Shown piece by piece: positions 1,576 to 43,577 of a stretch of 47,536 nucleotides of DNA. Numbering within the stretch: position 1 is the first letter of the stretch; the number at the start of each line of letters is the position of its first letter. This DNA comes from Eubacteriales bacterium (GTDB lineage: Bacteria; Bacillota; Clostridia; Oscillospirales; CAG-272). The notes beneath the pieces are model-generated. The model had not been told where the DNA came from. It did not search any database and was given only the letters and a program-made list of their open reading frames with translations. The stretch is from NCBI GenBank assembly GCA_045543375.1, contig JAZQMI010000040.1, positions 1-47,536 on the forward strand. The letters run 5' to 3'. Position numbers and translations under genes: made by a program.

Positions 1576-2595
1576 TTATAATTGCGCAAACACGGAAAGT
1601 CCGTACTCGCACAGCGCGTGGTCCTCCTCGCCCGTGCCGCCCGAGATGCCAAGTCCGCCGACGATGCGGTCACCCACCTTCAAGGGGACGCCGCCGCCAA
1701 AGACGAGCATACCCTCGACGTTCTGAAGTCCGTAGAAGGTCTGTCCCGGCTGAACGAGTTTGGAAAGCTCCATGGTCGACATTTTGACCGAAACGGCGGT
1801 GTACGCCTTTTTGAGCGCCACGTCGTAGCTGACGAGGAATGCGTCGTCCATAACGTGCACGGCAATGGGATTACCCTGTGCGTTGCACACGGCAATGACC
1901 GCCTTTTTGCCCGTGCGAGTTGCCTCGGTCTGAATGGCCTCGATCAGCGCGGTCGCCTTTTTCAGGTCGAGCGTGATGCCGCCCATACGGCGCAACACCT
2001 CGTCAACAACGGCGTCCTGCACGCTTGCGGGAGCGCTTGACATGGGTGAAATCCCTCCATTCTCACGGCGTGCCATCTCGTCGTAATCGGCTCGGCGCGC
2101 CAGCATATACAGATAATCGGACAGACGGTTGAGATACGCCTTGGCCGCTGCGTTGGCCGCGTACTTGCGATCCATGACGGCAAGCTCTCGCTCGGCGCGT
2201 CTTGCCACCGTGCGGGCAACGTCCAGCCTTGCCGACAGCTCGCAGCAGCCGGGCAAAATGAATTTATGCTCGCGCGGGAAGGACGCCTCGACCGCATCGA
2301 TGATGCTCTCAAGGAAAGCCGTTTCCTCGGGCAGCAGCACGTGCGCCTTGTTGCGCGGCTCGGCAATGCCCGCCATGATCTTCATCAGCGCCTCTTGCAC
2401 GCGGTCAAAGTGCTCGACACACTTGACGCTGTCCTGCGTGCGCATGCCCGCGATATAAGCCTTGGCAAGCCCCATGTGCGAGGTCAGCTCGTCGATCGAG
2501 CCGAGTGTCGCAATGCGGTCGTCCGCCTTGGATATTTGCGTTGCGGACATCAGCGTCGTCATGCCGCCGTCTCCGTGTTTGGTGTAGATCTTCAT
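1576..2595 (-). CDS. pduO: ATP:cob(I)alamin adenosyltransferase PduO, two-domain form with C-terminal GlcG/HbpS-like heme-binding domain
   Basis: KIYTKHGDGGMT, GSIDELTS, ARTVARRAER, YLNRLSDYLY motifs; C-terminal ALKKAYTA...FGGGVPL...VGGLGISGG GlcG motifs. Confidence 0.93.
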   Translation of the reverse strand: MKIYTKHGDGGMTTLMSATQISKADDRIATLGSIDELTSHMGLAKAYIAGMRTQDSVKCVEHFDRVQEALMKIMAGIAEPRNKAHVLLPEETAFLESIIDAVEASFPREHKFILPGCCELSARLDVARTVARRAERELAVMDRKYAANAAAKAYLNRLSDYLYMLARRADYDEMARRENGGISPMSSAPASVQDAVVDEVLRRMGGITLDLKKATALIEAIQTEATRTGKKAVIAVCNAQGNPIAVHVMDDAFLVSYDVALKKAYTAVSVKMSTMELSKLVQPGQTFYGLQNVEGMLVFGGGVPLKVGDRIVGGLGISGGTGEEDHALCEYGLSVFAQL

Positions 2596-2783: not shown

Positions 2784-3128
2784 TCAATTCTGCTCCTCAA
2801 GCTTAAAAGGAAGCCTTTTGATCACGCGCGCGCTGTTAGCACCTGCATCACGCGCCTGTTCGGATGTTGCGTTCTCATAACGCAGTACCGCCTTGCCACG
2901 CTCCATGCCCTTGATATGCAAGGCAATGGTACTGCCGCACAGCGCGACGCCCGTGCCGAGCACGGATGCCTCGGATGCAGCGGCGGCCAGTACGGTCGCA
3001 TCACCTGCGATGGCCGCGGTGATCTCAAAAAGCACGCCCTCCTCCTCGATACCGGCACAGATCTCGCGAAGAAGCGCCGCATCGGGACGGGCAGTATAGA
3101 TCATAATGGTTGGTTTTTTTGCGATCAT
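2784..3128 (-). CDS. pduH: Diol/glycerol dehydratase reactivase small (beta) subunit
   Basis: GIEEEGV, S.LG.GV and AGANSAR.IK.LPF motifs; 4-nt overlap with the reactivase large subunit. Confidence 0.9.
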   Translation of the reverse strand: MIAKKPTIMIYTARPDAALLREICAGIEEEGVLFEITAAIAGDATVLAAAASEASVLGTGVALCGSTIALHIKGMERGKAVLRYENATSEQARDAGANSARVIKRLPFKLEEQN

Positions 3129-4948
3129 GACCGGCCCTCTCCCAGATAAGAAAGTACCAGACCCGTCGCAACCGCGTTACGTGGTCCCTCCGAGGCGCGC
3201 ACGTTTCCGCGACCGCACACAATGCGGTGCGAGGCAAATTCCTCCATAAGCATCTCGGGGATTTCAAAGTCCTCGGCCGAGCCGCCCAGCAGCACGACGT
3301 TGGGGATTTTCTTCAGATCTCCCGCAGGTGCGACCTGCCGCAACGCGCGCAATGCGTTGACAACAAACACGCGGCGCTTGGCCTCGCGACGTACCTCAAC
3401 GATCTTTTCCATGGGGATATCCTCGTCGATGCGGATCATGCCCTCGGGAGCGAGCAGCACGACGTGGCCGAACAGTCTGGGATCGATCGCGCCGTCAAAG
3501 AACTGCATACCGCCGTTCTCCAGTCGCAAATGGAACAAGCTTTCCACACGCGCCACGGGATACTTTTTGATCTGCTCGGCGGTGTGTCTGGATGCAAGCC
3601 CCAGCTCGGTCTGAATGAGCATGGAAACCAGCTCGCCCGCGCCCGCGCAATGCGTCATGCGCACCGAGCCGTCGCTGTCGATGATGGCCGCGTCGGTCGA
3701 GCCACCGCCCATGTCAAGCACGGCGATAGGGGTTTTGGTACCCGGCGTCGTCAGTGCGCCCAACGCGGCCATAACGGCCTCAACGCCCGCCACGTGAACG
3801 CGGACGCCAAGCTGGGTAGACAGCGTATCTGCGATCTGCTGCATGGGCAACTGGCACGTGCGCACCATAGCGGCAATACCGACCGCCTTTTCCATACAGC
3901 TCTCGCCTGCGATCGCACCCGAAATGGCCACGGGCGCCAGCGTATCGACGGCCAGAAGGTCGGTAATACGAATATCCTCGGCGCGCTCACCGCTCACCGA
4001 CGACATGCTTGTGCGGATACGATCAAGCATCAAGCCGACGTTGGTGTCAGCCTGTCCCTCAATGTTATGCACCTTGCCCGCGTCCTCAAGTGCCTGCATG
4101 ATGCGCACGGCACCCTCGTCGATATCGACCGTTGCGGGACGGTCGGCAAAAAAGGTGATCGAACCTGCCTTGCGCACGTTTTCGTGCACGTTACCGCCCG
4201 GCGTCTTGATGACCACCGCGCTTCTCTTGCCGATCAGCGATTTGGCGATGGGCGTGACCTTGCGCGTCTGCTCGGCGTCAAGCTCAAGCAGCGTGGCGAT
4301 GCCATAGGGGTTGGACAGCATACGCACCGACTGACCCGGCAGCGCCACCTCGATAGCGGCCAGCTTGCCCTCGGGCAGTCGCTCAATATAACGAACCTCG
4401 TCAATGATGGGGATCTTTTTCGTTTTCAATCTGTTTTCTACCAGCACCGCCTCGTCCGCCTGCAAGATAATGCCGCGGATATCCAGCCGCGCGCTTGCGC
4501 GGTTGATACGTTCGGCAACCGTTTCGTAAGTATAGGAGCGCGGTACGGTAACGATGTAGGGAGTATCGGGTCTTGCAGCGTCCAGCGACGAAAGCGCGAT
4601 CAGATAACCGACCGCCTGTCCTGCGCCCGCAGGCGTCGCGGGATTGTGCCCGATCATAGAGGACTCGGTAATGATCGTTTCGGTGATGGTTTCCATGGCC
4701 GTATCACCGATGACGGGGGCAGCTTCATTGATGCGAATGAGCGTCAGCTCGCGCATCTCCCTTCCCGCCGTCTTGAGTGCCATGTCCAGAGCCGTTCTGA
4801 TGCCGTGGACGTTGGCTACCGTTCCCTTCGTTCCCGTGGTAGGAGAGAGTGCGCTGCCGACGAAGCTCACGCGTCCCAGGTCATCCAGCGACCCAAGGCA
4901 CACCTCCGTCGTCGAATTACCGATGTCAACACCGGCAATCAATCTCAA
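3125..4948 (-). CDS. pduG: Diol/glycerol dehydratase reactivase large (alpha) subunit
   Basis: GVDIGNSTTEV, INEAAPVIGD.AMETITETIITES.MIGHNP.TP, LDMGGGSTDA, EGPRNAVATGL; 607 aa. Confidence 0.97.
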   Translation of the reverse strand: MRLIAGVDIGNSTTEVCLGSLDDLGRVSFVGSALSPTTGTKGTVANVHGIRTALDMALKTAGREMRELTLIRINEAAPVIGDTAMETITETIITESSMIGHNPATPAGAGQAVGYLIALSSLDAARPDTPYIVTVPRSYTYETVAERINRASARLDIRGIILQADEAVLVENRLKTKKIPIIDEVRYIERLPEGKLAAIEVALPGQSVRMLSNPYGIATLLELDAEQTRKVTPIAKSLIGKRSAVVIKTPGGNVHENVRKAGSITFFADRPATVDIDEGAVRIMQALEDAGKVHNIEGQADTNVGLMLDRIRTSMSSVSGERAEDIRITDLLAVDTLAPVAISGAIAGESCMEKAVGIAAMVRTCQLPMQQIADTLSTQLGVRVHVAGVEAVMAALGALTTPGTKTPIAVLDMGGGSTDAAIIDSDGSVRMTHCAGAGELVSMLIQTELGLASRHTAEQIKKYPVARVESLFHLRLENGGMQFFDGAIDPRLFGHVVLLAPEGMIRIDEDIPMEKIVEVRREAKRRVFVVNALRALRQVAPAGDLKKIPNVVLLGGSAEDFEIPEMLMEEFASHRIVCGRGNVRASEGPRNAVATGLVLSYLGEGRS

Positions 4949-5368: not shown

Positions 5369-6496
5369 TCAGCGATCCGTCCAGGCGATGATGGGATAGT
5401 TCGGATCGACCTGCTCGGTTTCGGCAATGTGCATGATAGCGGCCTTGACCTGATACTTGGCGCGGCACATGGGATCATTAACCGACAGAATGGGCGTTAC
5501 CTGCTCGCCCTTGGCATACTTGGCAGCGTTCTGACCGATCTTGCGGTAGGTTTCCAGCGTCATCAGGGGTGCCTGGGGGAACAGCTCCAGATTGGAGAGC
5601 GGATACAGATCCTTCTGGTGAATGACCGCCGTACCCTTGGACTGAAGTCCGATACCGATGCCCGATCCCGAAATCTTTGCGGCCTCAAGACCCATGAAGC
5701 AAACGTCGCTCGTCTTGAGCACCTTGACCACGCGGGGCGTCATGCCCTCCTCCTCGATGCCGGCCTTGACCTCGCGGATGACCTCATCCAGCGGAATACC
5801 GCAAATGGTAGCTCTGATCTCCTTCTGGAAACCGGGGCCTACGCCAATGACGACCTCCTTGGGGTCCGTTCCCTTTTCGGCAACGGGATAGCCCTTGTAA
5901 GACGTCTTATGCTCGTTGATACGCTCTCTGCCCGCCATGGACGCAGGACGCGCGCACGTAGCAGTCGGGCAAGCCGCGCTCTGCTCACGGGCGGTAGCAG
6001 CGCTTGCCATCTCACGTGCAGGCTGGGCACGCAGTGCGCTGAGCACCTTTTCAATGGCCTCCTCGGGGACGACGCCCTCAAGCTGTGCAGCCTCCTTGAT
6101 GACGGCCTCGGAGATCTTTTTGCAGATCTCATCCTCCAGCTCGACGCCGCGGTTGGTAAACAGTGCGCTCTGCGAGGACATGGGTCTGATCTCTCTTACG
6201 CTCTCGCCCTGCAATGCGCCGATGACCTTTTGCAGCATTTCCTCGGGATCGACCCCGTCAAGCTGCTCGGCCTCCTTGACAACTGCTACGGCGATCTTGC
6301 GCACGATCTCTTCGTTGATGGCCACACCGCGATGGCCCATCAGCTTTTGCGTGGTGCACTCGCGGCGAGGCTCAGCCCCCTCCAGATAGCCCACGACCGA
6401 ATTCAGCATTTCCTCGGGACGGATGCCGTCAAGCTGTGCCGATTCGGCAATGACGGCCTCGGTAATTTTTCTGCGTATATCTTCATTCAGTTGCAT
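5369..6496 (-). CDS. pduD: B12-dependent diol/glycerol dehydratase medium (beta) subunit with long, triplicated N-terminal extension
   Basis: C-terminal half has EVVIGVGP, AGIEEEG, SGSGIGIGLQSKGTAVIHQKDL.PLSNLELFPQAPL; N-terminal ~200 aa extra. Confidence 0.93.
   Translation of the reverse strand: MQLNEDIRRKITEAVIAESAQLDGIRPEEMLNSVVGYLEGAEPRRECTTQKLMGHRGVAINEEIVRKIAVAVVKEAEQLDGVDPEEMLQKVIGALQGESVREIRPMSSQSALFTNRGVELEDEICKKISEAVIKEAAQLEGVVPEEAIEKVLSALRAQPAREMASAATAREQSAACPTATCARPASMAGRERINEHKTSYKGYPVAEKGTDPKEVVIGVGPGFQKEIRATICGIPLDEVIREVKAGIEEEGMTPRVVKVLKTSDVCFMGLEAAKISGSGIGIGLQSKGTAVIHQKDLYPLSNLELFPQAPLMTLETYRKIGQNAAKYAKGEQVTPILSVNDPMCRAKYQVKAAIMHIAETEQVDPNYPIIAWTDR
6026..6496 (-). repeat. 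Three ~40-aa tandem repeats (period 57-60 aa) at the N-terminus of the medium subunit
   Basis: LNEDIRRKITEAVIAESAQLDGIRPEEML / INEEIVRKIAVAVVKEAEQLDGVDPEEML / LEDEICKKISEAVIKEAAQLEGVVPEEAI; DNA repeat TCCTCGGG...TCAAGCTG near 6060, 6240, 6411. Confidence 0.9.
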
Positions 6497-6517
6497 GATG
6501 TTGTCCTCCGTAATGGA

Positions 6518-8182
6518 TTAAAGATTTTGCGGATCGATCTGATGGGGGATATCCTTGATCTCCTCCCAACGCTCGCCATCAAGGCGATAGCCCGTACCGG
6601 GACCCATATAAGTGTTAGGCGTATTGACTGCGCTGAGCACGCGGAAATCCTTGTCAAGGATAGCCGAGGTCTGCATGTAGTCGCCGATGACGCGCTGCTT
6701 GAGCATGCTCAGGATGCGCTCTGCCACGTCCTCGTGGCCCGTTTCCGCCAACGCGCGGCAGACGTCAATGCCCGTAATGCCTCGCTTGAGCATATCCTCG
6801 CAAGCGATCAGATCGGCAGGCACGTCGCGGTCGAGCGTATCGCGCGAGCCGTGGGCGTACACGACCGCCTCGACCTGCTCGTCCGTGATCTCGGTCAGAC
6901 CAAGATACCGGAATACCGACTGCACCGCCTTGGCTGCCTTGCGGCGGACGGCCAGCACGTCCTCCTCGCGAACGGGGCGTAAGCCGCCGTCCACCTGCAA
7001 ATCGCGCTGCAGCACGTTGTAATCGTCAAAGTCCTCGGCATCGAAGTTGGAGCCGGCGAACATGTTATCGTAGTTGGGCTCGGCCGCATAGCCCGAGAAA
7101 ATGAAGTCGGTACCGGGCATCAACTCAAGCAGCGTGCGCGCTGCGCGACGCATGGGCGAGTTGGAAAAGCTCTGGTCGTTACCCGACGCACATTCAAGAC
7201 CCAGCAGCGTGGCAGCCAGATTCTCACCCAGCACCTCGCGAATGCCCGACGGCACAGATGCCGGCACGGCGATACAACTGATGGCACCGTTTTGCGTGCC
7301 CTGCGCGCCCGCGCCCTTGGTCACGTACAAGCAGCGGCACTCCAGATACAGCATCGATTTCTTTTCGCTGTAACCCATAAGCACCTCCGAGCCCGCGCCC
7401 GATGTGAAGCGCACCTTGAGGCCGCGCGAGGCGTAAGCGGAGTTCAAAAATGCTTTGGAATAGGGCGTATCGTCGCCGTCGACGAACACCTTTTCAGTAC
7501 CGTAGACCGAAACGGTTTCCGCGTAAGTCGTCAAGCCGCGGATACCGAGATCAAGCTCGGTCGCCTCCTCGGACGAGCACTGGGTCAGCACGCCGGGGCG
7601 TCCGACCTGCGAGCCGATCAGAATCGCCATGGCCGAGAACGGCGCGTAACGGGCGATACCCATGGTCGTTTCCTCCTCGGCAAAGCCGCGGAGCGCGCCC
7701 TCTGCCGCATCGGCAGCGAGCTGGACGGGATCATCTTTTAAGTTGGTGATATGCGCCTGATTGGAGGGCTTGAGTCTTGCACGCATTTTCTGCATGCCCA
7801 TCATCAGCTCGACCACGTTGAGATAGCCGATGACCTCGGTCATCTTGGCGGGCGTGATGCCCGAACAGATCTTGAGGATCTCCTTTCTCGGCACGTGAAT
7901 ATCGACGATCTTGCGCGCGATCTCGAGCGAGGGCACCGACATGGACACGGGTGCACGCTGGAGATTGATGGCGTAATCGGCGATGAAGGTATCAATGAAA
8001 TCAAACTCGGCGCGCTTTTTGCCGTCCAGCTCGACCACCTTGCCGCCCACGATCTTGATCGAGGGGGTGGGATCATAGGGGCTGTGCATGGCGACAAAGC
8101 CCATCTCGGGCCATTCACCGATGTAGCCGTCCAGATTGACCGGACGAGCATCCAGCGCTTGGAATCTCTTGGATCGTTTCAT
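6518..8182 (-). CDS. pduC: B12-dependent diol/glycerol dehydratase large (alpha) subunit
   Basis: MKRSKRF...RPVN.DG, VELMM.MQKMRAR, YAET.SVYGTE.VF.DGDDTP, YDNMFAGSNFDAEDFDDYN; 554 aa. Confidence 0.97.
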   Translation of the reverse strand: MKRSKRFQALDARPVNLDGYIGEWPEMGFVAMHSPYDPTPSIKIVGGKVVELDGKKRAEFDFIDTFIADYAINLQRAPVSMSVPSLEIARKIVDIHVPRKEILKICSGITPAKMTEVIGYLNVVELMMGMQKMRARLKPSNQAHITNLKDDPVQLAADAAEGALRGFAEEETTMGIARYAPFSAMAILIGSQVGRPGVLTQCSSEEATELDLGIRGLTTYAETVSVYGTEKVFVDGDDTPYSKAFLNSAYASRGLKVRFTSGAGSEVLMGYSEKKSMLYLECRCLYVTKGAGAQGTQNGAISCIAVPASVPSGIREVLGENLAATLLGLECASGNDQSFSNSPMRRAARTLLELMPGTDFIFSGYAAEPNYDNMFAGSNFDAEDFDDYNVLQRDLQVDGGLRPVREEDVLAVRRKAAKAVQSVFRYLGLTEITDEQVEAVVYAHGSRDTLDRDVPADLIACEDMLKRGITGIDVCRALAETGHEDVAERILSMLKQRVIGDYMQTSAILDKDFRVLSAVNTPNTYMGPGTGYRLDGERWEEIKDIPHQIDPQNL

Positions 8183-8251: not shown

Positions 8252-8280
8252 ATTATACTACATTTCTTGTCAAAAGTCAA
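8252..8280 (-). promoter_or_regulatory. Sigma-A promoter of dehydratase operon
   Basis: Minus strand TTGACT-N17-TATAAT. Confidence 0.75.
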
Positions 8281-30331: not shown

Positions 30332-33142
30332 TCAGTCCTCCAGATTGACAAGGCACTTGGCGCAAAGGAAACCGTCCTCGCTCTGTTTGCCTTCAGTCGA
30401 GTAGCTCCAGCAACGGTCGCACTTGCAGCCGTCGGCGCCCTCAACGAGCACGCCGATGCCCGACACCGTTTCGGTCAGCGCGCCCTCAACGGCCTTACCC
30501 TTCTCAAGCTTAACGCCCGAAACGATGAACACCGTCTTGAGCATATCGCCAAACGAAGACAACAGCTCGTACTGTGCGTCGTCCTCGGTGTAAACGGTCA
30601 GCTTGGCATCCAGCGACTTACCGATCTTCTTATCGGCTCTTGCGATCTCAAGCGCCTTCATGACGTCGTCACGCAGCTCGAACAAAGCATTGTAGCGATC
30701 AGCCTCGCTGCCCAGCTCGTAGCATTCGCAAGCGGCGGGCATACGGTTGAGGAATACGCTCTCGGTCTTATCGCTCGCAAGGTGCGGCATGCACTGCCAG
30801 ATCTCCTCTGCCGTAAAGGACAGAAGCGGTGCCATCAGTCTTACCATGGCGGAAAGCGTCAGGTACATGGCCGTCTGTGCGCTGCGGCGCGCGGGAGAGC
30901 AGGCGCGCTCGGTGTAAACGCGATCCTTGGTGATATCCACGTAAAGCTTGGACAGCTCGGTGGTGCAGAAATTGGTCAGATCGTGATAAATGGTATGGAA
31001 GCAATAGCCCTCATAACCCTTCATGGCGCGGCGGATGAGATCGTTCAATCTCGACAGCAGCCAGCGGTCGATCTCCTGCATGTCCTTGACGTCGACCATA
31101 TCCTTGTTGGGATCGAAGTCGTTCAGGTTTGCCAGAATGATACGCGAGGTGTTGCGGATCTTACGGTAAGCCTCGGAGAGCTGCTTGAAGATCAGATCGG
31201 AGCAGCGGACGTCCACCTGATAGTCGGCAGACGCGACCCAAAGGCGCACAAGGTCAGCACCGTACTTGGCGACCATATCCTGCGGATCGACGCCGTTACC
31301 GAGCGACTTGTGCATGGCGCGGCCTTCACCGTCAACGACCCAACCATGGGTCAGAACGGTCTTGAAGGGTGCCGTCGTGCCGCCCTTGGCACCGATGGCC
31401 GTCAGCAGCGATGCCTGGAACCAACCGCGGTACTGGTCTGCGCCCTCAAGGTACAGATCTGCCGGCCAGGACTGCTCGGGCCAGCCCTTGCCGCCCTCGT
31501 CCTCGAGCACGGCAAAGTGGGTAGAGCCGGAGTCGAACCAGCCGTCCAGCGTGTTCTGCTCCTTGATAAAGTGCGTCTTGCCGCACTTGGGGCAGACGTA
31601 GCCCTCGGGCAGAAGATCCTTGGCATCCATGGCGAACCAGCAGTTGGAGCCGTGTTCCTTGAACATATCGGACACCTTGGCGATGGTTTCTGCGTTGCAG
31701 ATGGTTTCCTTACAATCCTCGCAATAGAAGACGGGAATGGGCAGACCCCAATGACGCTGACGCGAGATGCACCAGTCGGCTCTCTCACCCAGCATCTGCT
31801 TCATGCGCTCGCCGCCCCAGGCGGGCAGCCAGCTCACGTCGTCGCAGGCCTTGACGGCATCGGCGCGGAAGGCGTCGACCGAGCAGAACCACTGCGGCGT
31901 GGCGCGGAAGATGATGGGAGATTTACATCTCCAGCAATGGGGATATTCGTGCTCGAATTCCTTGGAGGCGAACAGTGCGCCGCTCTCGGTCAGGTCGGCC
32001 AGAATGGCAGCGTTGGACTCGTCGTAGTACATACCGGCAAACTTGCCTGCGTCCTCGGTCTGATAGCCGCGATCGTCGACGGGCACGATGATGTCAATGC
32101 CGTAGCGTTTGCAGGTCTGGTAGTCGTCGGCACCAAAGCCGGGTGCGGTGTGGACACAGCCCGTACCGCTGTCCATGGTGACGTAATCAGCCATGAGCAC
32201 GACACTCTCGCGGTCAAGGAAGGGGTGCTGCGTCTTGATGAATTCGAGCTCCTTGCCCTGCATGGTGGCAACAACCTTGAAGTTCTCGACACCGCCCTCG
32301 AGCATGGTCTTGGTGACCAGCGCCTCGGCGATGACGTAATACTCATCGTTCGCCTTAACGACGGCATAGCTCTCGACGGGGTTGAGCGCGATGGCAAGGT
32401 TGCCGGGCAGCGTCCAGGTGGTCGTCGTCCAGATGATGAAATAAGTCTTGGAAAGATCGCAGACATTTGCCAGCTTTCCCATATCATCCTTGACGCGGAA
32501 CTTGACGTAGATAGACGTACACTTGTCGGTCTTGTACTCAATCTCGGCCTCGGCCAGAGCCGTTTCATCCTTGGGGCACCAGTAAACGGGCTTCAGGCCC
32601 TTATAGATGTAGCCCTTACGGAACATCTCGCCGAACACCTTGACCTCACGCGCCTCAAAGGCGGGGTCCATGGTGGTGTAGGGGTTGTTCCAATCAGCGA
32701 CAAGACCCAGACGCTTCATCTGACCGCGCTGGATATCAATGAAATCCTGCGCGAAAGCGTGGCAGGCGCTGCGGAATTCGGGAATGCTCATGGCCTTACG
32801 GTTGAGCTTGTTTTTCTTGATGATGGCCGACTCGATGGGCATGCCGTGGTTGTCCCAACCGGGAACAAAGGGCACGCGATATCCCATCATGGAGCGCGAC
32901 TTGTTGATAAAGTCCTTGAGCGTCTTATTCAAGGCGTGACCCATGTGGATGTTGCCGTTCGAGAAGGGAGGGCCGTCGTGCAGCACGAAGGTGGGGCAGT
33001 CGGCGTTGTTCTCAAGCATTTTGTTGTAAAGATCGATCGACTCCCAGTATTCGAGCATCTTGGGCTCGCGCGTGGGAAGATTTGCCCGCATTTCAAACGA
33101 TGTTGTGGGCAGGTTGAGTGTGGATGTGTAATCCTTTGCCAT
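30332..33142 (-). CDS. ileS: Isoleucyl-tRNA synthetase (type 1)
   Basis: LHDGPP, HMGH, DWCISRQR.WG, EG.DQYRGWF, AMHKS, C-terminal CDRCW...CAKC; Ile T-box upstream. Confidence 0.98.
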   Translation of the reverse strand: MAKDYTSTLNLPTTSFEMRANLPTREPKMLEYWESIDLYNKMLENNADCPTFVLHDGPPFSNGNIHMGHALNKTLKDFINKSRSMMGYRVPFVPGWDNHGMPIESAIIKKNKLNRKAMSIPEFRSACHAFAQDFIDIQRGQMKRLGLVADWNNPYTTMDPAFEAREVKVFGEMFRKGYIYKGLKPVYWCPKDETALAEAEIEYKTDKCTSIYVKFRVKDDMGKLANVCDLSKTYFIIWTTTTWTLPGNLAIALNPVESYAVVKANDEYYVIAEALVTKTMLEGGVENFKVVATMQGKELEFIKTQHPFLDRESVVLMADYVTMDSGTGCVHTAPGFGADDYQTCKRYGIDIIVPVDDRGYQTEDAGKFAGMYYDESNAAILADLTESGALFASKEFEHEYPHCWRCKSPIIFRATPQWFCSVDAFRADAVKACDDVSWLPAWGGERMKQMLGERADWCISRQRHWGLPIPVFYCEDCKETICNAETIAKVSDMFKEHGSNCWFAMDAKDLLPEGYVCPKCGKTHFIKEQNTLDGWFDSGSTHFAVLEDEGGKGWPEQSWPADLYLEGADQYRGWFQASLLTAIGAKGGTTAPFKTVLTHGWVVDGEGRAMHKSLGNGVDPQDMVAKYGADLVRLWVASADYQVDVRCSDLIFKQLSEAYRKIRNTSRIILANLNDFDPNKDMVDVKDMQEIDRWLLSRLNDLIRRAMKGYEGYCFHTIYHDLTNFCTTELSKLYVDITKDRVYTERACSPARRSAQTAMYLTLSAMVRLMAPLLSFTAEEIWQCMPHLASDKTESVFLNRMPAACECYELGSEADRYNALFELRDDVMKALEIARADKKIGKSLDAKLTVYTEDDAQYELLSSFGDMLKTVFIVSGVKLEKGKAVEGALTETVSGIGVLVEGADGCKCDRCWSYSTEGKQSEDGFLCAKCLVNLED

Positions 33143-33185
33143 GTTGGTGTTTCTCCTTTTCGTTTGTTTTTGACCTCGCGGCGGG

Positions 33186-33474
33186 AAACAAAACACGCCC
33201 CACAGCCGCATGCGACTATGAGACGGAACAAGTAAATTCCGCGGTACCACTCACGTTGCGTCCCATGAAGGGAACGCCTCTCACGGCTGCGCCGAGCGGC
33301 ACAGCACCCGACCTTAACGCGGTCAAACGGACGCGACTACTCGGACAAAAACTCTCGCCTTGCCGTTCGCCCCGTCAGCTCCGAAGGGATACGCAACACC
33401 GTCCGCCGCGCCGTCACACCAACCCTGCGCTCTCTGTAGACTTCGTAGTGTCTTGCTTCTTCATCATAACTTTT
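33186..33474 (-). ncRNA. T-box riboswitch leader, Ile specifier
   Basis: AGAGA and GGTGTGA stem-I motifs, specifier ATC (33388-33390), T-box AACGTGAGTGGTACCGCG (33240-33257), terminator 33186-33225. Confidence 0.92.
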
Positions 33475-33480
33475 CATCAT

Positions 33481-33552: not shown

Positions 33553-35754
33553 TTATACCTGCACTCTTGCGATCATTTCGTCCTGAAGCTCGCGCGGCAA
33601 GTCGACGAACACGGCCGACACGCCCCAAAGGCGGACGATCAGGTCGCGGTAGGCGTCCGGATTTTGCTGTGCGGCACGCAATGCCTCGACGCTGAGCACG
33701 TTGGGCTGGTGTTGAAGCCCACCCTTGGCAAAATAGGTCGTGAGCAGTTGGCGGAAGATGGCCTCACCCTCGTTGCCCTCAAACACCGAGGCGTAATAGT
33801 TCACCATGACGCACATATTCCACTGGCACAGCCGTCCGTCGATCTTGGCGGCTGACGACAGCGTAGCCGTTGCGCCCTCACTTGCCGTGCCGCTCTCGGG
33901 TGCCAGCGTGACCGCCACGGGTGTGCCCGCATGGCGTCCCTCGGGCGTCGCCATCAGCTTTTGACCCGTCGGCACGGGGTGCGGCTGATGAATACCGCCC
34001 AAAATCACGCCGCCGTCGCTCGTGCGATATTTGGTCAGCTCCCTCAAGCAGAAGTCAAACAGATCGCAAGCGATCGCGTCGACGGCATCGTCGTCGTTGC
34101 CCCACTTGGGTGCGTTCCACAAGCGTCGGCGCAACAGCTCCTGTCCCTCGCCTTGGTAGTCCGCCTCGCAAGCAGCCACCACCTCGGCAAGCGTTGCCTG
34201 TCCTTTATCATACACGACGTGCTTGATAGCGGCAAGCGAGTTGACCGCCTCGGTCGCCGTACCGAAAAAGACACCGCGTGCGCGAATGGGATAGGGCTCG
34301 TAGATCATATCACACGCCACCTCCAGCGTGCCGTGATACAGCGCGCTGAGCAGCGGCAAGGGCGACATGGGGCTTTTGTTGCGGCAGGCGGGCTGAATAC
34401 CACGACGAAGTCCTTCAAAATACTCGTCGTAGCGCCCGTCGCGGTACAGGTATAGATTGGCCTGTGCGCGATTGTGCGTTTCAATGCCCTGCGCAATATT
34501 TTGCGCCACGTGAGCCTTGTAATCCTCCAGCAGCGCGTCAAAATCCGCATATGGTTTTCCCTGCTTCAAAAGCTCCATGAGCAAATTGGCGAGCATGGGG
34601 TTGCAGACGTAGAAAAAGTCGCCCTTGCCGGGAACGTTGACGTCCTGACAAAGATCAAAGCCGTAGCTGCGCGCGTCGGCCTCATTCAAGCCCGCCGCGC
34701 TCAGATTGGCGACAAAGGCCTCGTCGTTGTAGTACGACACGAAATTACAACCACTCACGGTCAGCTTTGATGCCATCTCCAAAAACTCGGGTGGGTTGCA
34801 AGGGTGCAGGCGCAGATTGAACTCGGGCTCGGGCAATCGGACGCGGTCGATGGCGCGAAGAAACATCATAGTGACCTCACTGACCGCGTTCTCGCCACTT
34901 GGCAGCACGCCGCCAAGTGTAACGACAAGCTGCGAGGAATATTTGTTCAGATAGGTCGTGTTCAGATCGGCCTGATCGTACATTTTCAGCAAAAGACAGC
35001 ACAAAAGCTCCTGTGCCATCTCGTGCGGCGTATCCTTCAGATAGGGGGCAAGTATCACATCAAGGCGCCCGTAGCAAATGAATTCAAAGCTTTCGATGAT
35101 GCAGCCAAGGTGTCCGAACCAAAGTAGCTGCACGGCCTCGTAAAAGGTGTCGGGGGCATCCGTTGCGATCTTACGGCAAATGCGCGCGATCTCGCCAAGG
35201 CGTGCCATCTCGTGCTGCTCCGTACTCTCCCCCACCAGACGCTCCGCCTCGTCGGCGTAGCGCAAAATAAGCGTTTGCAGCCCCTCATAAGCAATGCGCA
35301 CCGACGACAAAAACTCGCGCTGTTCCCGCGTGCAGCCCTCTCGCTCTTCGCGTGCGCGCACGTCGTCAAGAATACCGCCGATGCCGCGCGAGAGAAGAAT
35401 GGACAGGTCGGGCGTGTAGTGCGTTTTGTTGGTATAGCTCTGGTCGACACCAAAGCGCTTGATCTCATCCGCGCGAAGATAGGGGATCTTGGTCGGCAGG
35501 TGATAATCAAAGATGCTGTGTCCGTCGAGATTGCTCTCGTGCGGCGTAAAATAAGTGCGCGTACCCACGATCAGCTCGCGCACGCCGATGTACAGCGGCA
35601 TACGCGCAAAAATGAGTGAAAGTGCCATGGCCTTGCGTTCGGCAATGCTCAAAGGCAAGGTCGATACGTCAAGATCGTTCGGCAACGGCGCGCGCTTGCA
35701 TTTATTGGCACCCGACACCGTCATCTCGCGTAGAAAATCAATTCTGTCGCTCAT
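33553..35754 (-). CDS. Glycyl radical enzyme (PFL-like superfamily) of unknown function
   Basis: ELIVG, P.TFYEAVQL.WF, GRLD, TLGG, YYND, PKWGNDD, ATPEGR.AG.P, Q.NV, P..Y.DLIVR..G.S..FV.L; 733 aa from ATG after AAGGAG; adjacent activase. Confidence 0.92.
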   Translation of the reverse strand: MSDRIDFLREMTVSGANKCKRAPLPNDLDVSTLPLSIAERKAMALSLIFARMPLYIGVRELIVGTRTYFTPHESNLDGHSIFDYHLPTKIPYLRADEIKRFGVDQSYTNKTHYTPDLSILLSRGIGGILDDVRAREEREGCTREQREFLSSVRIAYEGLQTLILRYADEAERLVGESTEQHEMARLGEIARICRKIATDAPDTFYEAVQLLWFGHLGCIIESFEFICYGRLDVILAPYLKDTPHEMAQELLCCLLLKMYDQADLNTTYLNKYSSQLVVTLGGVLPSGENAVSEVTMMFLRAIDRVRLPEPEFNLRLHPCNPPEFLEMASKLTVSGCNFVSYYNDEAFVANLSAAGLNEADARSYGFDLCQDVNVPGKGDFFYVCNPMLANLLMELLKQGKPYADFDALLEDYKAHVAQNIAQGIETHNRAQANLYLYRDGRYDEYFEGLRRGIQPACRNKSPMSPLPLLSALYHGTLEVACDMIYEPYPIRARGVFFGTATEAVNSLAAIKHVVYDKGQATLAEVVAACEADYQGEGQELLRRRLWNAPKWGNDDDAVDAIACDLFDFCLRELTKYRTSDGGVILGGIHQPHPVPTGQKLMATPEGRHAGTPVAVTLAPESGTASEGATATLSSAAKIDGRLCQWNMCVMVNYYASVFEGNEGEAIFRQLLTTYFAKGGLQHQPNVLSVEALRAAQQNPDAYRDLIVRLWGVSAVFVDLPRELQDEMIARVQV

Positions 35755-35771
35755 GATACACGCTCCTTTCT

Positions 35772-36590
35772 TTACTGCTTTTTGAAAAGATACTCGTAAC
35801 GCCCGATTGCCTTGAGTGCTCTTGAGGCATCGCCGACGTAGGTGCAATCAAGGCCGAGCGTTTCATATTTACTCTTACCCAGCGTATGATACGGCATGAG
35901 TGTCACGCGCTCGACGCTCGGCAATCCGTTCACAAAATCTGCGATGCGGCGCATCTCGTCCCCGTCGTCGTTAAAGCCGGGAATGACGGGCACGCGCACC
36001 CACATGGGTTTACCAAGCGAGGACAGCCGTCTTGCGTTGTCCAAGATCAGCGCGTTGTCCGCGCCGATCCAAGCGCGATGACGCGCAGCGTCCATGCACT
36101 TGATATCATACAGATAAAGGTCGCACACCTCCAAGGTTTTTTCAAACGCCGACCACGGCACAGCACCCGAGGTATCGATCGCCGTATGTACGCCCTCGGC
36201 CTTGATGGTACGCAACAGCTCGGTCGCAAAATCGGCTTGCAGCAAACACTCGCCGCCTGACAGCGTGACGCCGCCGTCCGCGCCATAATAAGCGCGGTCG
36301 CGCAGTACCAAGTGCACCGCTGCCTCAAGCGTCATACGCTCGCCGCACACCGACAGTGCCCCCACGGGGCACGCATCCGCCGCTTGGAGCGACGAACGGT
36401 CACCGCAACGTCCGCAACCCATGCATTTTTCTTTAAAAAATTGCAATTCGGGCGCAGCAGACAGCCCTTCGGGGTTATGACACCAGGGGCAGCGCAAGGG
36501 ACAACCCTTGAAAAAGACGGTCGTGCGAATGCCCGGTCCGTCGTGCACCGAAAAGCGTTGCACGCGAAAAACAGTAGCGGTACTGCTCAT
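35772..36590 (-). CDS. Glycyl-radical enzyme activating enzyme (radical SAM)
   Basis: HDGPGIRTTVFFKGCPLRCPWCHNPE, GGVTLSGGE, DTSG, YDIK, R.PVIPGFND, PYH.LG..KY. Confidence 0.95.
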   Translation of the reverse strand: MSSTATVFRVQRFSVHDGPGIRTTVFFKGCPLRCPWCHNPEGLSAAPELQFFKEKCMGCGRCGDRSSLQAADACPVGALSVCGERMTLEAAVHLVLRDRAYYGADGGVTLSGGECLLQADFATELLRTIKAEGVHTAIDTSGAVPWSAFEKTLEVCDLYLYDIKCMDAARHRAWIGADNALILDNARRLSSLGKPMWVRVPVIPGFNDDGDEMRRIADFVNGLPSVERVTLMPYHTLGKSKYETLGLDCTYVGDASRALKAIGRYEYLFKKQ

Positions 36591-36603
36591 CAAACTGCTC
36601 CTC

Positions 36604-37074
36604 TCAAAGGTTTTTTGCTCGCTCCTTGACTGCCGCCACAAAATCGGGCAGCTCATGCTCGTAGCTTCCGCTCATATAAGGGCTGGCCATGATAAAATCG
36701 GCCGTCGCGCGATTGTTGGCGATGGGAATGTCATACACCTGCGCGATGCGGAGTAGTGCCTTGACGTCGGGATCGTGGGGCTGTGCGGTCAACGGGTCGG
36801 AGAAGAAAATGACCACGTCCACCCTTCCCTCCACGATACGCGCGCCGATCTGCTGATCACCGCCCAGAGGACCGCTGTTAAATCCGCGCACGGGCAAGCC
36901 TGTATGCTCGGCGACCATTTTGGCCGTCGTGCCCGTACCGCAAAGAAAATGATGCTCCAGGATCTTTTTGTTTTTGAGGCACCAGTCGATCAGTTCTCTC
37001 TTTTTATTGTCGTGGGCAATGAGGGCAATGTTCTTTTGCCCCTCCATTACCACCTTGACCATTTGCTCTGCCAT
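36604..37074 (-). CDS. mgsA: Methylglyoxal synthase
   Basis: IALIAHDNKK, GTGTT, SGPLGGDQQIGA, DPL...PHDPDVKALLR, A.NRATAD. Confidence 0.97.
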   Translation of the reverse strand: MAEQMVKVVMEGQKNIALIAHDNKKRELIDWCLKNKKILEHHFLCGTGTTAKMVAEHTGLPVRGFNSGPLGGDQQIGARIVEGRVDVVIFFSDPLTAQPHDPDVKALLRIAQVYDIPIANNRATADFIMASPYMSGSYEHELPDFVAAVKERAKNL

Positions 37075-37726: not shown

Positions 37727-40423
37727 TTATCTGTATCTATCCTTTTTTCTCATATAGAAAATAATAACAAGAAGAATGATAATGATGCAGATCAGAAGGA
37801 TCAGCCAGAACAGCCACATGCAGGGACGCTCCGGCTCTTCGGGTACAACAGGCTCACCAGGTTCGTCGGGCGTCTGCGTAGGCTCAAGCTGAGGGATTTC
37901 CTCAGTTCTGCTTGCACTTCCGCAGGTGGTGCAGGTGTAGGTCTTGACACCGGCAGCCTCCTCGGTCGCCTCGACCGTTACCTCACCCTCGTTCCAGGTG
38001 TGCTCAAGCGCGGGAATGACCTCGGTCTTGACGTAAGCACAGACCGAGCAGGTGTAGGTCTTGGTGCCCTCAACGCCGCAAGCTGCCGGCGTGATCTCCT
38101 CTACCCAGGCGTGTGCCTGCTCGCCGATGCGATCTCCACAGCTGCATGCGATCCAGTGGTGCGTGTCGTTGACCGACCACTGAGCCGAGGATACCGTCTG
38201 GTGCGTGTGTTCAAGCACGGGGATCTCCTCCGTCTTGGTCTCGCGGCAAACGGTACAGATATGCGTCAGAACGCCGGGTGTCTGCTCGGTGGCTGCCGTC
38301 GTGACCGTGCCGGCATCCCAGGTGTGATCGCTCAAGGGGATCTCCTCGGTCTTGGTATAGGCGCAGGCGGTACAGGTCAGCTTCATCGTACCCTTGCTCT
38401 CACAGGTTGCTGCAAGCACAACCTCCTGCTCCCAATCGTGTCCGTTCACGTTGGCGCGTTCGCCGCAAAGGCACTCGTACCAATGCTCAGTATCACTATG
38501 CTTCCACGTGTTGATATAAACGTGCACGTGGCTCAACGAGGGGGTCTCCACCGTCTTGGTGTCACCGCAGTCCAGGCAGGTCAGCAGCTTTTCACCGGTA
38601 GAGCTCTCGGTCGCAGGCTTGGTGACGACACCGTCGTCCCACTTGTGCGCGGTGTACTCCCATTCCAGGCAATCCATGCACTGGTGCTTTTGCTCGTTCT
38701 CGTCTACGCTCGACCACTCACCGTAGTTGTGAGGTGCCTTGCTGCCGTACTCGCTGTGACAAGCATCGCAAATTGCCTTTGCCGAACAGGTGGCCTGTCC
38801 ACCGGCATGCTGCTCGCGTCCGTCCGTTGCGTTACAGCCATCGCGCAGACACTCGTAGTAATGGTAGTTGACGTTGGAGGAATACGTCGTTGCGAAATCG
38901 TGACCCAGCTCGGTGCCGTAGCTGAACGTCTCGTCGCCCTTGTGACCGCATGCGCAGCTCTTATAATACAGTGCTGCCTGCGTGCAGTTTGCCTCGGACT
39001 TCAGATATTCGGGCTTAGCGACCTCTTGGTCGTGAACGTGATCGGCAAGCGCACCGTAGGATTGTCCGCAAGCGTCACACACCGCCTGTGCAGAGCAGGT
39101 CGCCTGACCGCCCGCATGCGCGCCGCGACCGTCGGTCACGGTACAGCCGTCACGCAGGCACTCGTAGTAGTGCTCGGTATCGTTGGAGGTGTAAGTCTTG
39201 GAGAAATCGTGACCACGTGCCGTGCCGAACGTAAAGGTTTCGCTCGTTGTCTCACCGCACACGCAGCTCTTGTAATATACGGCCGCGTGCTCGCAATCCG
39301 CAGCACTGACCAGGAAGGCGTCGTCTACGACTTCCTTATAATCGTGAGGCAGCGGAGAGCCGACCGTAAACGTGTTGGTATCTGCCAGACCACAAGCCGA
39401 GCAGCTAAAGTAGTAGCTGGCTGCGTTTTGGCAATCAGCCGCACTTGCCAGATATTCGTCGGCCACGACCTGCGCATCAAACTCGTGAGTCAGCGGCGCA
39501 CCGACCGTGAACGTGTTGGTGTCTGCCAGACCGCAATCCGGGCAGCTGTAATAGTAGGTAGCGGCGTTGTAGCAATCCGCGGCGCTTGCCAGATAGGCTT
39601 CCGTCGCGATTTCGGCGTCAAAGGTGTGAGGCTTGCTCTCTCCGTCGCCGCATCCCGAGCAGACCTTCTCATGCTCGCCCGTTTCTCCGTTCGGAGTCCA
39701 GTTACCGTAATTATGAGGCTCGCTCTCTACGCCGTGGCAGACAGTGCACTCGCGCTCGTGCTTTTGCGAGCCCTTATAGATCCAACCGTCATACTCACCC
39801 ACATAGGTGTGAGGAACCGGTGCAAGCAGCTCACCGCCGCTCGTGTAGGTGTCACAATCGGGGCAATAGATGCCGGCTGCATTGCCCTGCCCCTGGCAGG
39901 TCGAGGGCTCGGCGTCCTTGTAGTAAGCGTTGGCGTGGGGGCAAGTGACGGTCAGCGTTGCCGTCGTCGTGGTCGTGCAGGAAACGGCGGCACCGGTGGC
40001 ATCCTGCAGTCCAGTCATTGCACAACTGATCTGGGTCTGTTCGAGTGCCGCAGTATCCAACACCCTGAAGGTTACCGTCAGAATGGTACCGTTTACATTG
40101 CCGGAAGCGGGAAAACCGTTCATACCGAGGAAAGCAAATACAGCCAATCCGGTAGACGGATCGAAGGATGCCATCATGGTGTTAACGTGAACGGTGCCAC
40201 TCACGGGCTCGAGTACGTTCGGATCGTAAATCATTTCAATTCCACCGGACTTCAGGTCGGGAGCGCCGGAAAGTGTGACCGTAACCGTCACGGTTTCTCC
40301 GCGGCCGGCACCGGTCTTATCAACGCTGACATCAGCCGTTGCCGCAGAGTTGGCAAAGGCAGGAAAAGCCGTCAAAGCAAGCACAAGCATTACGATAACA
40401 CTTGCGAGTAAAAATTTTTTCAT
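37727..40423 (-). CDS. Membrane-anchored cohesin-domain protein with Cys/His-rich repetitive stalk
   Basis: Signal peptide (AFA); cohesin pattern GETVTVTV.L...IYDPNVLE...GTIL.VTF.V.D.A; ~19 H..C/CxxC modules; C-terminal TM plus RKKDRYR. Confidence 0.82.
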   Translation of the reverse strand: MKKFLLASVIVMLVLALTAFPAFANSAATADVSVDKTGAGRGETVTVTVTLSGAPDLKSGGIEMIYDPNVLEPVSGTVHVNTMMASFDPSTGLAVFAFLGMNGFPASGNVNGTILTVTFRVLDTAALEQTQISCAMTGLQDATGAAVSCTTTTTATLTVTCPHANAYYKDAEPSTCQGQGNAAGIYCPDCDTYTSGGELLAPVPHTYVGEYDGWIYKGSQKHERECTVCHGVESEPHNYGNWTPNGETGEHEKVCSGCGDGESKPHTFDAEIATEAYLASAADCYNAATYYYSCPDCGLADTNTFTVGAPLTHEFDAQVVADEYLASAADCQNAASYYFSCSACGLADTNTFTVGSPLPHDYKEVVDDAFLVSAADCEHAAVYYKSCVCGETTSETFTFGTARGHDFSKTYTSNDTEHYYECLRDGCTVTDGRGAHAGGQATCSAQAVCDACGQSYGALADHVHDQEVAKPEYLKSEANCTQAALYYKSCACGHKGDETFSYGTELGHDFATTYSSNVNYHYYECLRDGCNATDGREQHAGGQATCSAKAICDACHSEYGSKAPHNYGEWSSVDENEQKHQCMDCLEWEYTAHKWDDGVVTKPATESSTGEKLLTCLDCGDTKTVETPSLSHVHVYINTWKHSDTEHWYECLCGERANVNGHDWEQEVVLAATCESKGTMKLTCTACAYTKTEEIPLSDHTWDAGTVTTAATEQTPGVLTHICTVCRETKTEEIPVLEHTHQTVSSAQWSVNDTHHWIACSCGDRIGEQAHAWVEEITPAACGVEGTKTYTCSVCAYVKTEVIPALEHTWNEGEVTVEATEEAAGVKTYTCTTCGSASRTEEIPQLEPTQTPDEPGEPVVPEEPERPCMWLFWLILLICIIIILLVIIFYMRKKDRYR

Positions 40424-40470
40424 ATTGGTCTCCTTCGTATATGTTTTTATATCGCACACATTTTAACGCG

Positions 40471-43400: not shown

Positions 43401-43533
43401 CAACGGGTTGCGTTGTGTCGTTCGCGTCGGGCTGTGTGTCCTGGGCGCTGACACCAAGTGTAAGGCTTGAGGTAAGTAGCAATGCAAGCGCCAAAAGGAC
43501 GCTACAGAGCTTTCGGCTATTTCTGCTTTTCAT
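40471..43533 (-). CDS. Secreted BspA-type leucine-rich repeat protein with C-terminal dockerin
   Basis: Signal peptide; many IP.xVTxIGxxAF repeats; C-terminal duplicated GDIDG..GVSMEDAIYLL / DYDRDGDVTMDDAIYLL. Confidence 0.88.
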   Translation of the reverse strand: MKSRNSRKLCSVLLALALLLTSSLTLGVSAQDTQPDANDTTQPVAPTPPGNAQDTPEGDAGANDNTGTAPDQGEGGNAGDTPAPPEQEEILTDEQGIAYVLGDDEQSYVVKSYYGSLTELVIPATYQDLPVTAIDDWAFSISNVESVEIPGSVKSIGAYAFYSCDQLSSLVIPEGVTSIGAYAFCGCEALTDISIPNTMTDIEEHAFDDCASLGFHTYEGSLYLGNESNPYHALVLAPAEVTGSLTIHEDTRIILCYAFDSCYGLESVEIPSGVVKIAEGAFYACKELTTLTVAEGNTAYAVTDGCLIELDSQTLLLGTPDCVIPTDGSIKRIGAYAFFCNSAITEITLPEGVESIGIRAFSGCGIESVHLPASVTEIGELAFKGMDFLTSFTVDAENSAYTVVGNCLIENKSGMLLLGYGSFEIPADGSVTSIGDSAFSEDYEIESVVIPEGVTHVGDNAFANCMNLASVTLPESLNVIGMNAFASTAITEIVIPAKVKSVDLMAFFCSELQSITFLSPHADIDQSANTISASATIHGYMGSTAQTYAEMNGRVFEALEPEPEPEPEQPDLTLGTEGLVYTLNAAGTQYSVTGYEGTDVHVIVPEVYAGLPVVRVTKSAFATNSQGGGGTVELPPDILVPRGMQAAPTNATTTTAITDGVTLQSITLLSSTVILEDSKNTIPSGVAIYGYLGSTAEKYATKYNRTFAALDGLEFALNAQGTAYVLTGYTGTETKVTVPATYFTLPVTEIGDYAFEGLAELTEVILPGSIVSIGEGAFFETGLTSFTLPKSVTHIGLAALCAQNLSTLTVAAGNPVYYSAQNCIIEVATATLIAGCQSSVIPNNGTVTVIGDAAFAYSCLTSIVIPDAVTAIGYGAFYGCDALEEITISEAVESIDESAFADCDGLTKITIRSNEVDIFDAEDTISATAVIYGYADSTAQAYAEKYGREFVEITPYVPGDIDGVEGVSMEDAIYLLFYTIFPSQYPVEQPCDYDRDGDVTMDDAIYLLFHTFFPAQYPLT

Positions 43534-43577
43534 ATCTTTGCCTTTCCTTTCCGTGGTTATATAGTTATACAAATTAT

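Follow-up and report, generated by a model that had tools for sequence, protein, structure and literature searches.

Three tandem encapsulation-peptide-like modules at the N-terminus of a B12-dependent diol dehydratase medium subunit from one genus of uncultured gut Clostridia

In the prevailing view, single encapsulation peptides (EPs) drive the assembly of metabolosome cores, with valency supplied solely by the oligomeric state of the enzymes that carry them, and PduD of the Pdu microcompartment reportedly bears one such peptide at its N-terminus, as Fan and Bobik are said to have described in 2011. The window analysed here, the whole 47.5-kb contig of a 130-contig metagenome-assembled genome (81% complete, 4.6% contaminated), encodes a diol dehydratase medium subunit that instead begins with three copies of a helical unit, which raises the question of what these copies derive from and what they do for the enzyme. 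We favour, with a probability of roughly 0.6, the reading that they form a natural array of three EP-derived modules that recruits the dehydratase to the single PVM-like microcompartment of its genus and probably crosslinks cargo bearing single EPs.

The subunit is encoded in a six-gene minus-strand operon, pduC-D-E-G-H-O, together with two further dehydratase subunits, two reactivase subunits and a PduO-type adenosyltransferase (Table 1). Translation of the minus-strand ORF 6496..5369 gives a 375-aa medium subunit of a B12-dependent diol dehydratase, which scores above the curated cut-offs of both family models (PF02288, 120 bits against 27; NF011616, 265 bits against 248) and whose gene is adjoined by those for PF02286 and PF02287. 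The PF02288 match spans residues 230-333 only, the alignment to the beta chains of solved glycerol and diol dehydratases begins at residue 205/206, and the NCBIfam medium-subunit model aligns from residue 145, which corresponds to helix 2 of unit 3 and not to helix 1. The small subunit has no extension, as the initial annotation had stated: its 130 aa cover positions 5-132 of the 133 in PF02287, and it aligns to the long PduE-type NCBIfam model only at positions 43-170 of 174, so that the N-terminal part of that model is missing from it. Rfam detected no riboswitch near the dehydratase operon, and we found no shell genes in the 47.5-kb window.

Table 1. Features of the dehydratase operon and of the medium subunit, in window coordinates.
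Feature	Position	Strand	Remarks
Unit 1, residues 1-40	6377..6496	-	helix 5-19, loop, helix 27-38
Spacer 1, residues 41-57	6326..6376	-	near-invariant C47, H55, G57
Unit 2, residues 58-97	6206..6325	-	helix 62-78, loop, helix 84-96
Spacer 2, residues 98-117	6146..6205	-	ends in invariant R116 and near-invariant G117
Unit 3, residues 118-157	6026..6145	-	helix 122-136, loop, helix 144-156; aligns with the single EPs of sister PduD proteins
Linker, residues 158-199	5900..6025	-	Ala-rich, fast-evolving
Dehydratase medium-subunit core, residues 200-375 and stop	5369..5899	-	PF02288, NF011616
Large subunit, PduC-like, 554 aa	6518..8182	-	PF02286; no extension
Small subunit, 130 aa	4945..5337	-	PF02287; no N-terminal extension
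Reactivase large subunit	3125..4948	-	PF08841 and PF18427
Reactivase small subunit	2784..3128	-	PF02288
PduO-type adenosyltransferase fused to HbpS-like domain	1576..2595	-	last gene of the operon
Promoter-like TTGACT-17 nt-TATAAT	8252..8280	-	5′ of the large-subunit gene in the divergent intergenic region; by eye

The three 40-aa units and their spacers of 17 and 20 aa occupy 6026..6496 exactly, and are followed by a linker in which 11 of the 42 residues are Ala. Pairs of units share 22/40, 18/40 and 21/40 identical residues, and their local alignment scores of 103–119 compare with means of 24–28 for shuffled sequences (z 16.4–19.1; 1000 shuffles each), which bears out the earlier description of a 375-aa beta subunit with three copies of about 40 aa, 17–20-aa spacers and an Ala-rich linker. 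Searched by tblastn across the whole 1.8-Mb genome of origin, each unit retrieves just its two sister copies (E 7e-7 to 4e-10); the best match after these has an E value of 0.3.

The initial annotation had further proposed that the repeat is a multiplied PduD EP. In the available portion of PMC8217296, an EP is defined as an amphipathic alpha-helix of about 15–20 residues. Helix 1 is 15–17 residues long in each unit as assigned by DSSP on the AlphaFold2 (AF2) model, the array is N-terminal and joined to the core by the 42-aa Ala-rich linker, and shell genes of the PF00936 family are present in all 12 carrier genomes tested, with PF03319 also found in the genome of origin. Sister PduD proteins (L030, L031, P0052, P0066) carry one N-terminal EP-like helix and a linker, and the closest PduD proteins outside the genus, with cores 78–84% identical, start with a single EP-like helix and a short linker. 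In a MAFFT alignment that does not include the validated Salmonella peptide itself, the single helices of the sister proteins fall on helix 1 of unit 3, placing this helix at the position of the PduD EP. Each helix 1 also keeps two acid-to-base i,i+4 pairs, and the excerpted text of PMC12339742 ties the E7/R11 pair of the PduP EP to antiparallel EP association. Both the placement and the pairs lend support to the proposal. By hydrophobic moment, five of the six helices rank in the top 3–7% of shuffles, helix 1 of units 2 and 3 being in the top 6–7%; helix 1 of unit 1 is not distinguishably amphipathic, with 1005 of 2000 shuffles reaching its moment.

Some relatives carry just one complete unit: a single helix-loop-helix is found in two metagenomic PduD proteins (P0051, P0064) and in the PduD of genus g7, the other PduC-bearing genus of the same family. 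The existence of PduD with one helix, PduD with one unit and arrays with three units points to a stepwise history, which as read from these sequences likely ran from one helix to one two-helix unit and from there to three units. Orthologous units are 68–77% identical on average as against 42–48% among the units within one protein, indicating that the triplication predates the diversification of the genus and that the copies have not been homogenised.

AlphaFold2 predicts a helix of 15–17 residues, a loop and a helix of 12–13 residues in each unit, and unstructured spacers between them. It gives no confident tertiary fold for the array (pLDDT 25–66 within the full-length model, whose mean is 60.3), and on the array alone, the prediction that had been suggested at the outset, it returned the helix-loop-helix of every unit with no confident packing among them (pLDDT 47, pTM 0.25). 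The alignments behind these models are shallow, at 33–38 close relatives, so with confidence this low the units may yet adopt a closed six-helix fold. One alternative that we consider unlikely is that the three units form a single structured helical domain unrelated to targeting, for example an adaptor in cobalamin handling or one that engages the PduO-type adenosyltransferase or the reactivase; the low AF2 confidence would then mirror the shallow alignment. Against such a domain stand the position of helix 1 at the single EP of the sister proteins, the distinctness of orthologous from paralogous units and the predicted disorder of the spacers between them. Database searches also returned no relative of it: Pfam holds no family that matches the array above noise, even at E≤10, and the best PDB match has an E value of 0.41. 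The initial annotation had named an unrelated known domain among the findings that would speak against it, and none was matched in Pfam or the PDB. The ESM Atlas gave no usable match for P0036.

Conservation within the array does bear on this alternative. It is highest in the loop and helix 2 (0.84–0.85), lower in helix 1 (0.75) and lowest in the spacers (0.64), and the spacers are only partly ‘poorly conserved’, as they contain near-invariant Cys, His-x-Gly and Arg-Gly positions. Constraint on the loop, helix 2 and parts of the spacers exceeds what EPs joined by inert linkers should require, and the unit may therefore have an activity that canonical EPs lack; this excess favours a structured domain and counts against the simplest form of the EP-array reading.

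For selection we compared thirteen pairs, in some of which dS was saturated, so that dN/dS of the array was obtained for seven operon-type pairs and that of the core for seven. Among the operon-type pairs that gave values, dN/dS is 0.008–0.12 for the array and 0.008–0.06 for the core. The dN of the linker is the highest in every pair, and linker identity ranges over 19–86% as against 89–99% for the core in the operon-type rows. The array is thus under strong purifying selection, which makes it very improbable that the extension is not made or is functionless, with an internal Met as the true start and the repeat as a neutral expansion. Two NCBI-sourced annotations from this clade could be read in that sense, namely P0047 and P0044 (219 and 223 aa), which take as their start an internal Met within unit 3 or just past it, so that the array is missing from the deposited proteins; the DNA of L036:10001-11122 and L037:10001-11101 nevertheless encodes the full 370–375-aa frame. 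In two metatranscriptome runs, low-depth RNA contigs, some without differences, match parts of the small-subunit, core and large-subunit genes and leave 5872-7383, which includes the repeat, without coverage, which at this depth is no evidence of absence. RNA libraries may contain DNA, so these contigs are at most a weak hint of operon transcription and are silent on the repeat. A GGAGG Shine-Dalgarno sequence (SD) lies 8 nt ahead of the first ATG, which itself follows the pduC stop by only 21 nt, and both speak for translation from that start, as does an architecture that is intact in all 13 genomes of the genus.

All 13 of those genomes, from one genus of uncultured gut Clostridia, carry the array. 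Of 401 genomes of the window's family, 8 have it, all belonging to one genus, and it was found in none of the remaining 393, which represent 96 other genera. Besides the window's own genome, PduC is encoded by 6 of the 7 remaining genomes sampled from this genus and by 2 of 3 from a second genus; none turned up in the 95 further genera sampled. Residues 1-165, used in a word-indexed search, returned 31 proteins of 308–379 aa, 30 of them annotated with PF02288, the exception being the chimera P0008. The search with the N-terminal repeat region that the initial annotation had called for was carried out with phmmer and the 165-aa N-terminus against 1.84 billion representatives, and gave 7 matches, all from the same family or fragments and chimeras of it; a single 40-aa unit would probably be too short for detection in that search. 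Pattern scans of 185,579 species genomes yielded 11 loci, of which 10 show the six-gene operon as far as their contigs extend, and no shell genes were found within the fetched flanks of these 11 loci. We set aside P0008, for its chimeric C-terminal half, and P0035 and P0043 as fragments, and likewise P0038-P0042, P0050 and P0146-P0149 as fragments or chimeras.

The array survives without the enzyme. In four proteins (P0025, P0026, P0027, P0032) the array is 54–64% identical to that of the window's protein and the core only 37–64%, as compared to cores 89–99% identical in operon-type relatives, and one of them, P0026, scores 163.5 bits against NF011616, under its cut-off. One of the four is found in locus L017, between a hexapeptide transferase gene and a PduO-like gene, with no gene for a large, small or reactivase subunit beside it; PduC was not found in that genome (87% complete, 1% contaminated), whose shell locus is intact. 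The core of this orphan falls short of the NCBIfam cut-off and has a higher dN (0.44–0.46) than its array (0.32–0.35), the reverse of all operon-type pairs. Its position directly upstream of the PduO-like gene would suit a structured adaptor domain. That PduO-like gene (L017:5076-6269) is itself longer, at 397 aa, and matches the adenosyltransferase domain at E 4e-19 as against E 7e-45 for the window's protein, a weaker score that suggests it may be diverging along with the orphan.

Other loci have dispensed with the core altogether. In a metagenome scan we found two contigs, 90.6% identical over 1156 nt, in which the ORF ends directly after unit 3 and a hairpin and T-run follow the stop; the two ORFs differ by 22 synonymous and 1 nonsynonymous changes (dN/dS 0.012), a level of constraint that again speaks against a functionless repeat. 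The protein database holds 11 clusters of such free-standing arrays of 157–159 aa, 80–100% identical to each other, and a terminator-like hairpin and T-run follows the stop in all three free-standing loci read. In L053, from the same genus and the only locus in which promoter and SD were read, the free-standing gene has a promoter-like TAGTATAAT, an SD and a terminator, and its neighbours are unrelated, encoding a xylose-isomerase-like TIM barrel, a metallophosphoesterase and citrate synthase. The absence of PduO, reactivase or any pdu gene near the free-standing form is difficult to reconcile with such an adaptor domain. The L053 genome (G414) additionally encodes the fused form, a single PduC and a single shell locus, and is the sole genome with both fused and free-standing forms, a co-occurrence established at the level of the bin, which is 2.9 Mb in size with 8% contamination. 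In the array tree (FastTree, midpoint root, support values not considered), coreless and decayed-core forms fall in both major groups. The maintenance of the array in the absence of a working enzyme core fits a scaffold role, an idea already raised in the initial annotation. More tentatively, and with rather less confidence than we place in recruitment, the free-standing 157-aa protein could be a dedicated metabolosome core scaffold, a three-valent EP array without cargo that nucleates and crosslinks EP-tagged enzymes in the role that the short repeat-only CcmM has in beta-carboxysomes, with the fused form ancestral and the two-helix unit a new EP module whose helix 2 and loop make a specific contact. 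As a separate observation, four paralogous ORFs of about 500–610 aa without a Pfam match adjoin the free-standing gene (L053:1028-8088; G414:C49) and show 73–79% DNA identity to the ORF downstream of the free-standing gene in L034.

Each of the 12 carrier genomes tested has one BMC shell locus, located elsewhere than the dehydratase operon. In the genome of origin, every shell gene lies on a different contig from the operon, C49, which encodes four BMC-H proteins, a tandem-domain BMC-T, one further BMC-domain protein and one BMC-P, along with PduL, a PduS-like flavoprotein, PduV and a Zn-alcohol dehydrogenase. Both PduL and the latter dehydrogenase begin with what resembles a single EP followed by an Ala/Pro-rich linker. 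This locus is broken by the assembly, with the acetate kinase gene at the end of contig C17, and the aldolase and aldehyde dehydrogenase expected between C17 and C49, where the assembly has a gap, were not found. Two relatives with long contigs (L026, L028) have the complete locus, in the order acetate kinase, PF00596 class II aldolase, aldehyde dehydrogenase, Zn-alcohol dehydrogenase, shell genes (BMC-H, BMC-T, BMC-P) and PduL; there the aldolase has a C-terminal EP-like tail and the aldehyde dehydrogenase an N-terminal EP-like helix. The available text of PMC8217296 describes PVM-like loci as the aldolase-signature type of gut bacteria, and by their PF00596 aldolase and shell proteins L026 and L028 are of this type, an assignment made without the catalogue's own HMMs. 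The arrangement is not that of a PDU-type locus, in which the dehydratase genes lie among the shell genes.

The initial annotation had allowed that the array might scaffold the enzyme without a shell and had suggested a check for shell genes, which proved to be absent near the operon and yet present in every carrier tested. A shell-free enzyme body into which the array condenses the dehydratase would account for the lack of shell genes in the window and in the flanks of the 11 related loci, and in synthetic systems EPs can condense without shells, according to the excerpts of PMC12339742. We nonetheless regard such a body as quite improbable: a complete shell locus (BMC-H, BMC-T, BMC-P) with EP-bearing cargo is present in each of the 12 carrier genomes tested, so the suggestion of a scaffold possibly without a shell is not supported, and propionaldehyde requires an aldehyde dehydrogenase and PduL, both of which are encoded in the shell locus.

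As a side observation on this locus, a ParA-like ATPase gene (PF13614) directly follows PduV at G000:C49:6637-7735 (L009), an arrangement that recurs at L026:14876-15667 and L028:6987-7856. In the genome of origin, the next ORF overlaps it and encodes 120 aa with many Lys, Ala, Pro and Thr residues, and the two presumably resemble the McdA/McdB-type positioning pairs of carboxysomes.

Returning to recruitment by a three-module array, each module would consist of a helix resembling an EP, then a conserved loop, then another amphipathic helix, and spacers would link the modules. The array would thereby confer what the available part of PMC12339742 terms ‘intrinsic valency’, the use of serial copies on one chain, here three modules per beta subunit and six per holoenzyme if the enzyme assembles as alpha2-beta2-gamma2 like its solved homologues. 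It would bring the dehydratase, encoded far from the shell genes in an enzyme-only operon, into the aldolase-type (PVM-like) microcompartment, and would probably crosslink the single-EP cargo there, namely aldolase, aldehyde dehydrogenase, Zn-alcohol dehydrogenase and PduL, whereas the repeat-only protein would knit cargo by itself. We infer from these features that the array binds the shell or other EPs and condenses cargo. Gene content suggests a pathway in which the aldolase would yield lactaldehyde, the EP-tagged alcohol dehydrogenase would reduce lactaldehyde to 1,2-propanediol, the dehydratase would convert 1,2-propanediol to propionaldehyde inside the shell, and aldehyde dehydrogenase, PduL and acetate kinase would complete the route. 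This pathway corresponds to the second of two scenarios discussed in the excerpted part of PMC6620236, which leaves open whether propanediol dehydratase works inside the fucose/rhamnose (Pvm-type) compartment. A dehydratase that carries targeting modules despite a distant shell locus bears on that question as the excerpt frames it, and surveys that gather only genes near shell genes, as described in the available portion of PMC8217296, would miss such dehydratase loci.

The array shares with the PduD EP its protein family, its terminus and the succession of an amphipathic helix and a poorly conserved linker, but differs in having three copies rather than one, each with an additional conserved loop and second helix, and in its partly conserved spacers. 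The system also departs from Pdu in that the operon lies far from the shell genes, in that the shell locus is aldolase-type and not PDU-type, and in that the small subunit is without the additional EP that PMC4594438 reports on PduE. Until now, serial EPs have been presented as a matter of synthetic design (PMC12339742). In that work, EP1, EP2 and EP3 fusions to mNeonGreen showed partitioning in vivo that rises with copy number, three copies being the most built, and the EP3 design self-quenched in vitro. Common to these constructs and the array are serial copies of an EP and a linker on one chain. Those constructs are engineered repeats of the PduP EP on a monomeric reporter, whereas the array is natural, sits on an oligomeric enzyme, is built of two-helix units and also exists without cargo. 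Full-text searches across the main texts of openly accessible articles turned up neither natural tandem EPs nor a protein made of EPs alone. A natural array of three units makes it possible to examine directly how cargo loading depends on intrinsic valency.

Repeated binding modules on linkers also crosslink cargo in the carboxysome scaffolds CsoS2 and CcmM, the latter having a full-length and a short repeat-only form. The likeness is one of working, with repeat modules on linkers and with a form fused to an enzyme-like domain alongside a repeat-only form. There is no sequence or domain relationship, as judged by the lack of a Pfam match to SSUL or CsoS2 repeats; unlike in CcmM, the repeat-only form here is a separate gene and not the product of an internal start, and the organelle is a metabolosome, not a carboxysome. 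A different parallel is the catalytically inactive, EP-bearing aldehyde dehydrogenase that is proposed as a lumen scaffold in the excerpt of PMC4594438. There too an enzyme paralogue keeps its EP and loses catalytic constraint, like P0025, P0026, P0027 and P0032, but the enzyme family is another one, and here it is the targeting part that occurs three times, with one lineage having lost the enzyme part completely.

Several other features of the window lie outside this argument. Directly downstream of the operon, at 170-1543 on the minus strand, is the gene for a 457-aa protein with DUF2963 and MORN-variant repeats, in a region with a G+C content of 0.49 versus about 0.58. A pyruvate formate-lyase-like glycyl radical enzyme (764 aa), its radical SAM activase and then an MGS-like domain protein are encoded at 33553-36656 (minus strand), with no shell genes nearby. 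A T-box leader (RF00230, 94.8 bits) at 33216-33476 on the minus strand lies 5′ of a class I tRNA synthetase gene (30332-33250), and the same strand encodes, at 37727-43572, two very large proteins, of which the 910-aa one has a cohesin domain and the 1033-aa one BspA-type leucine-rich repeats.
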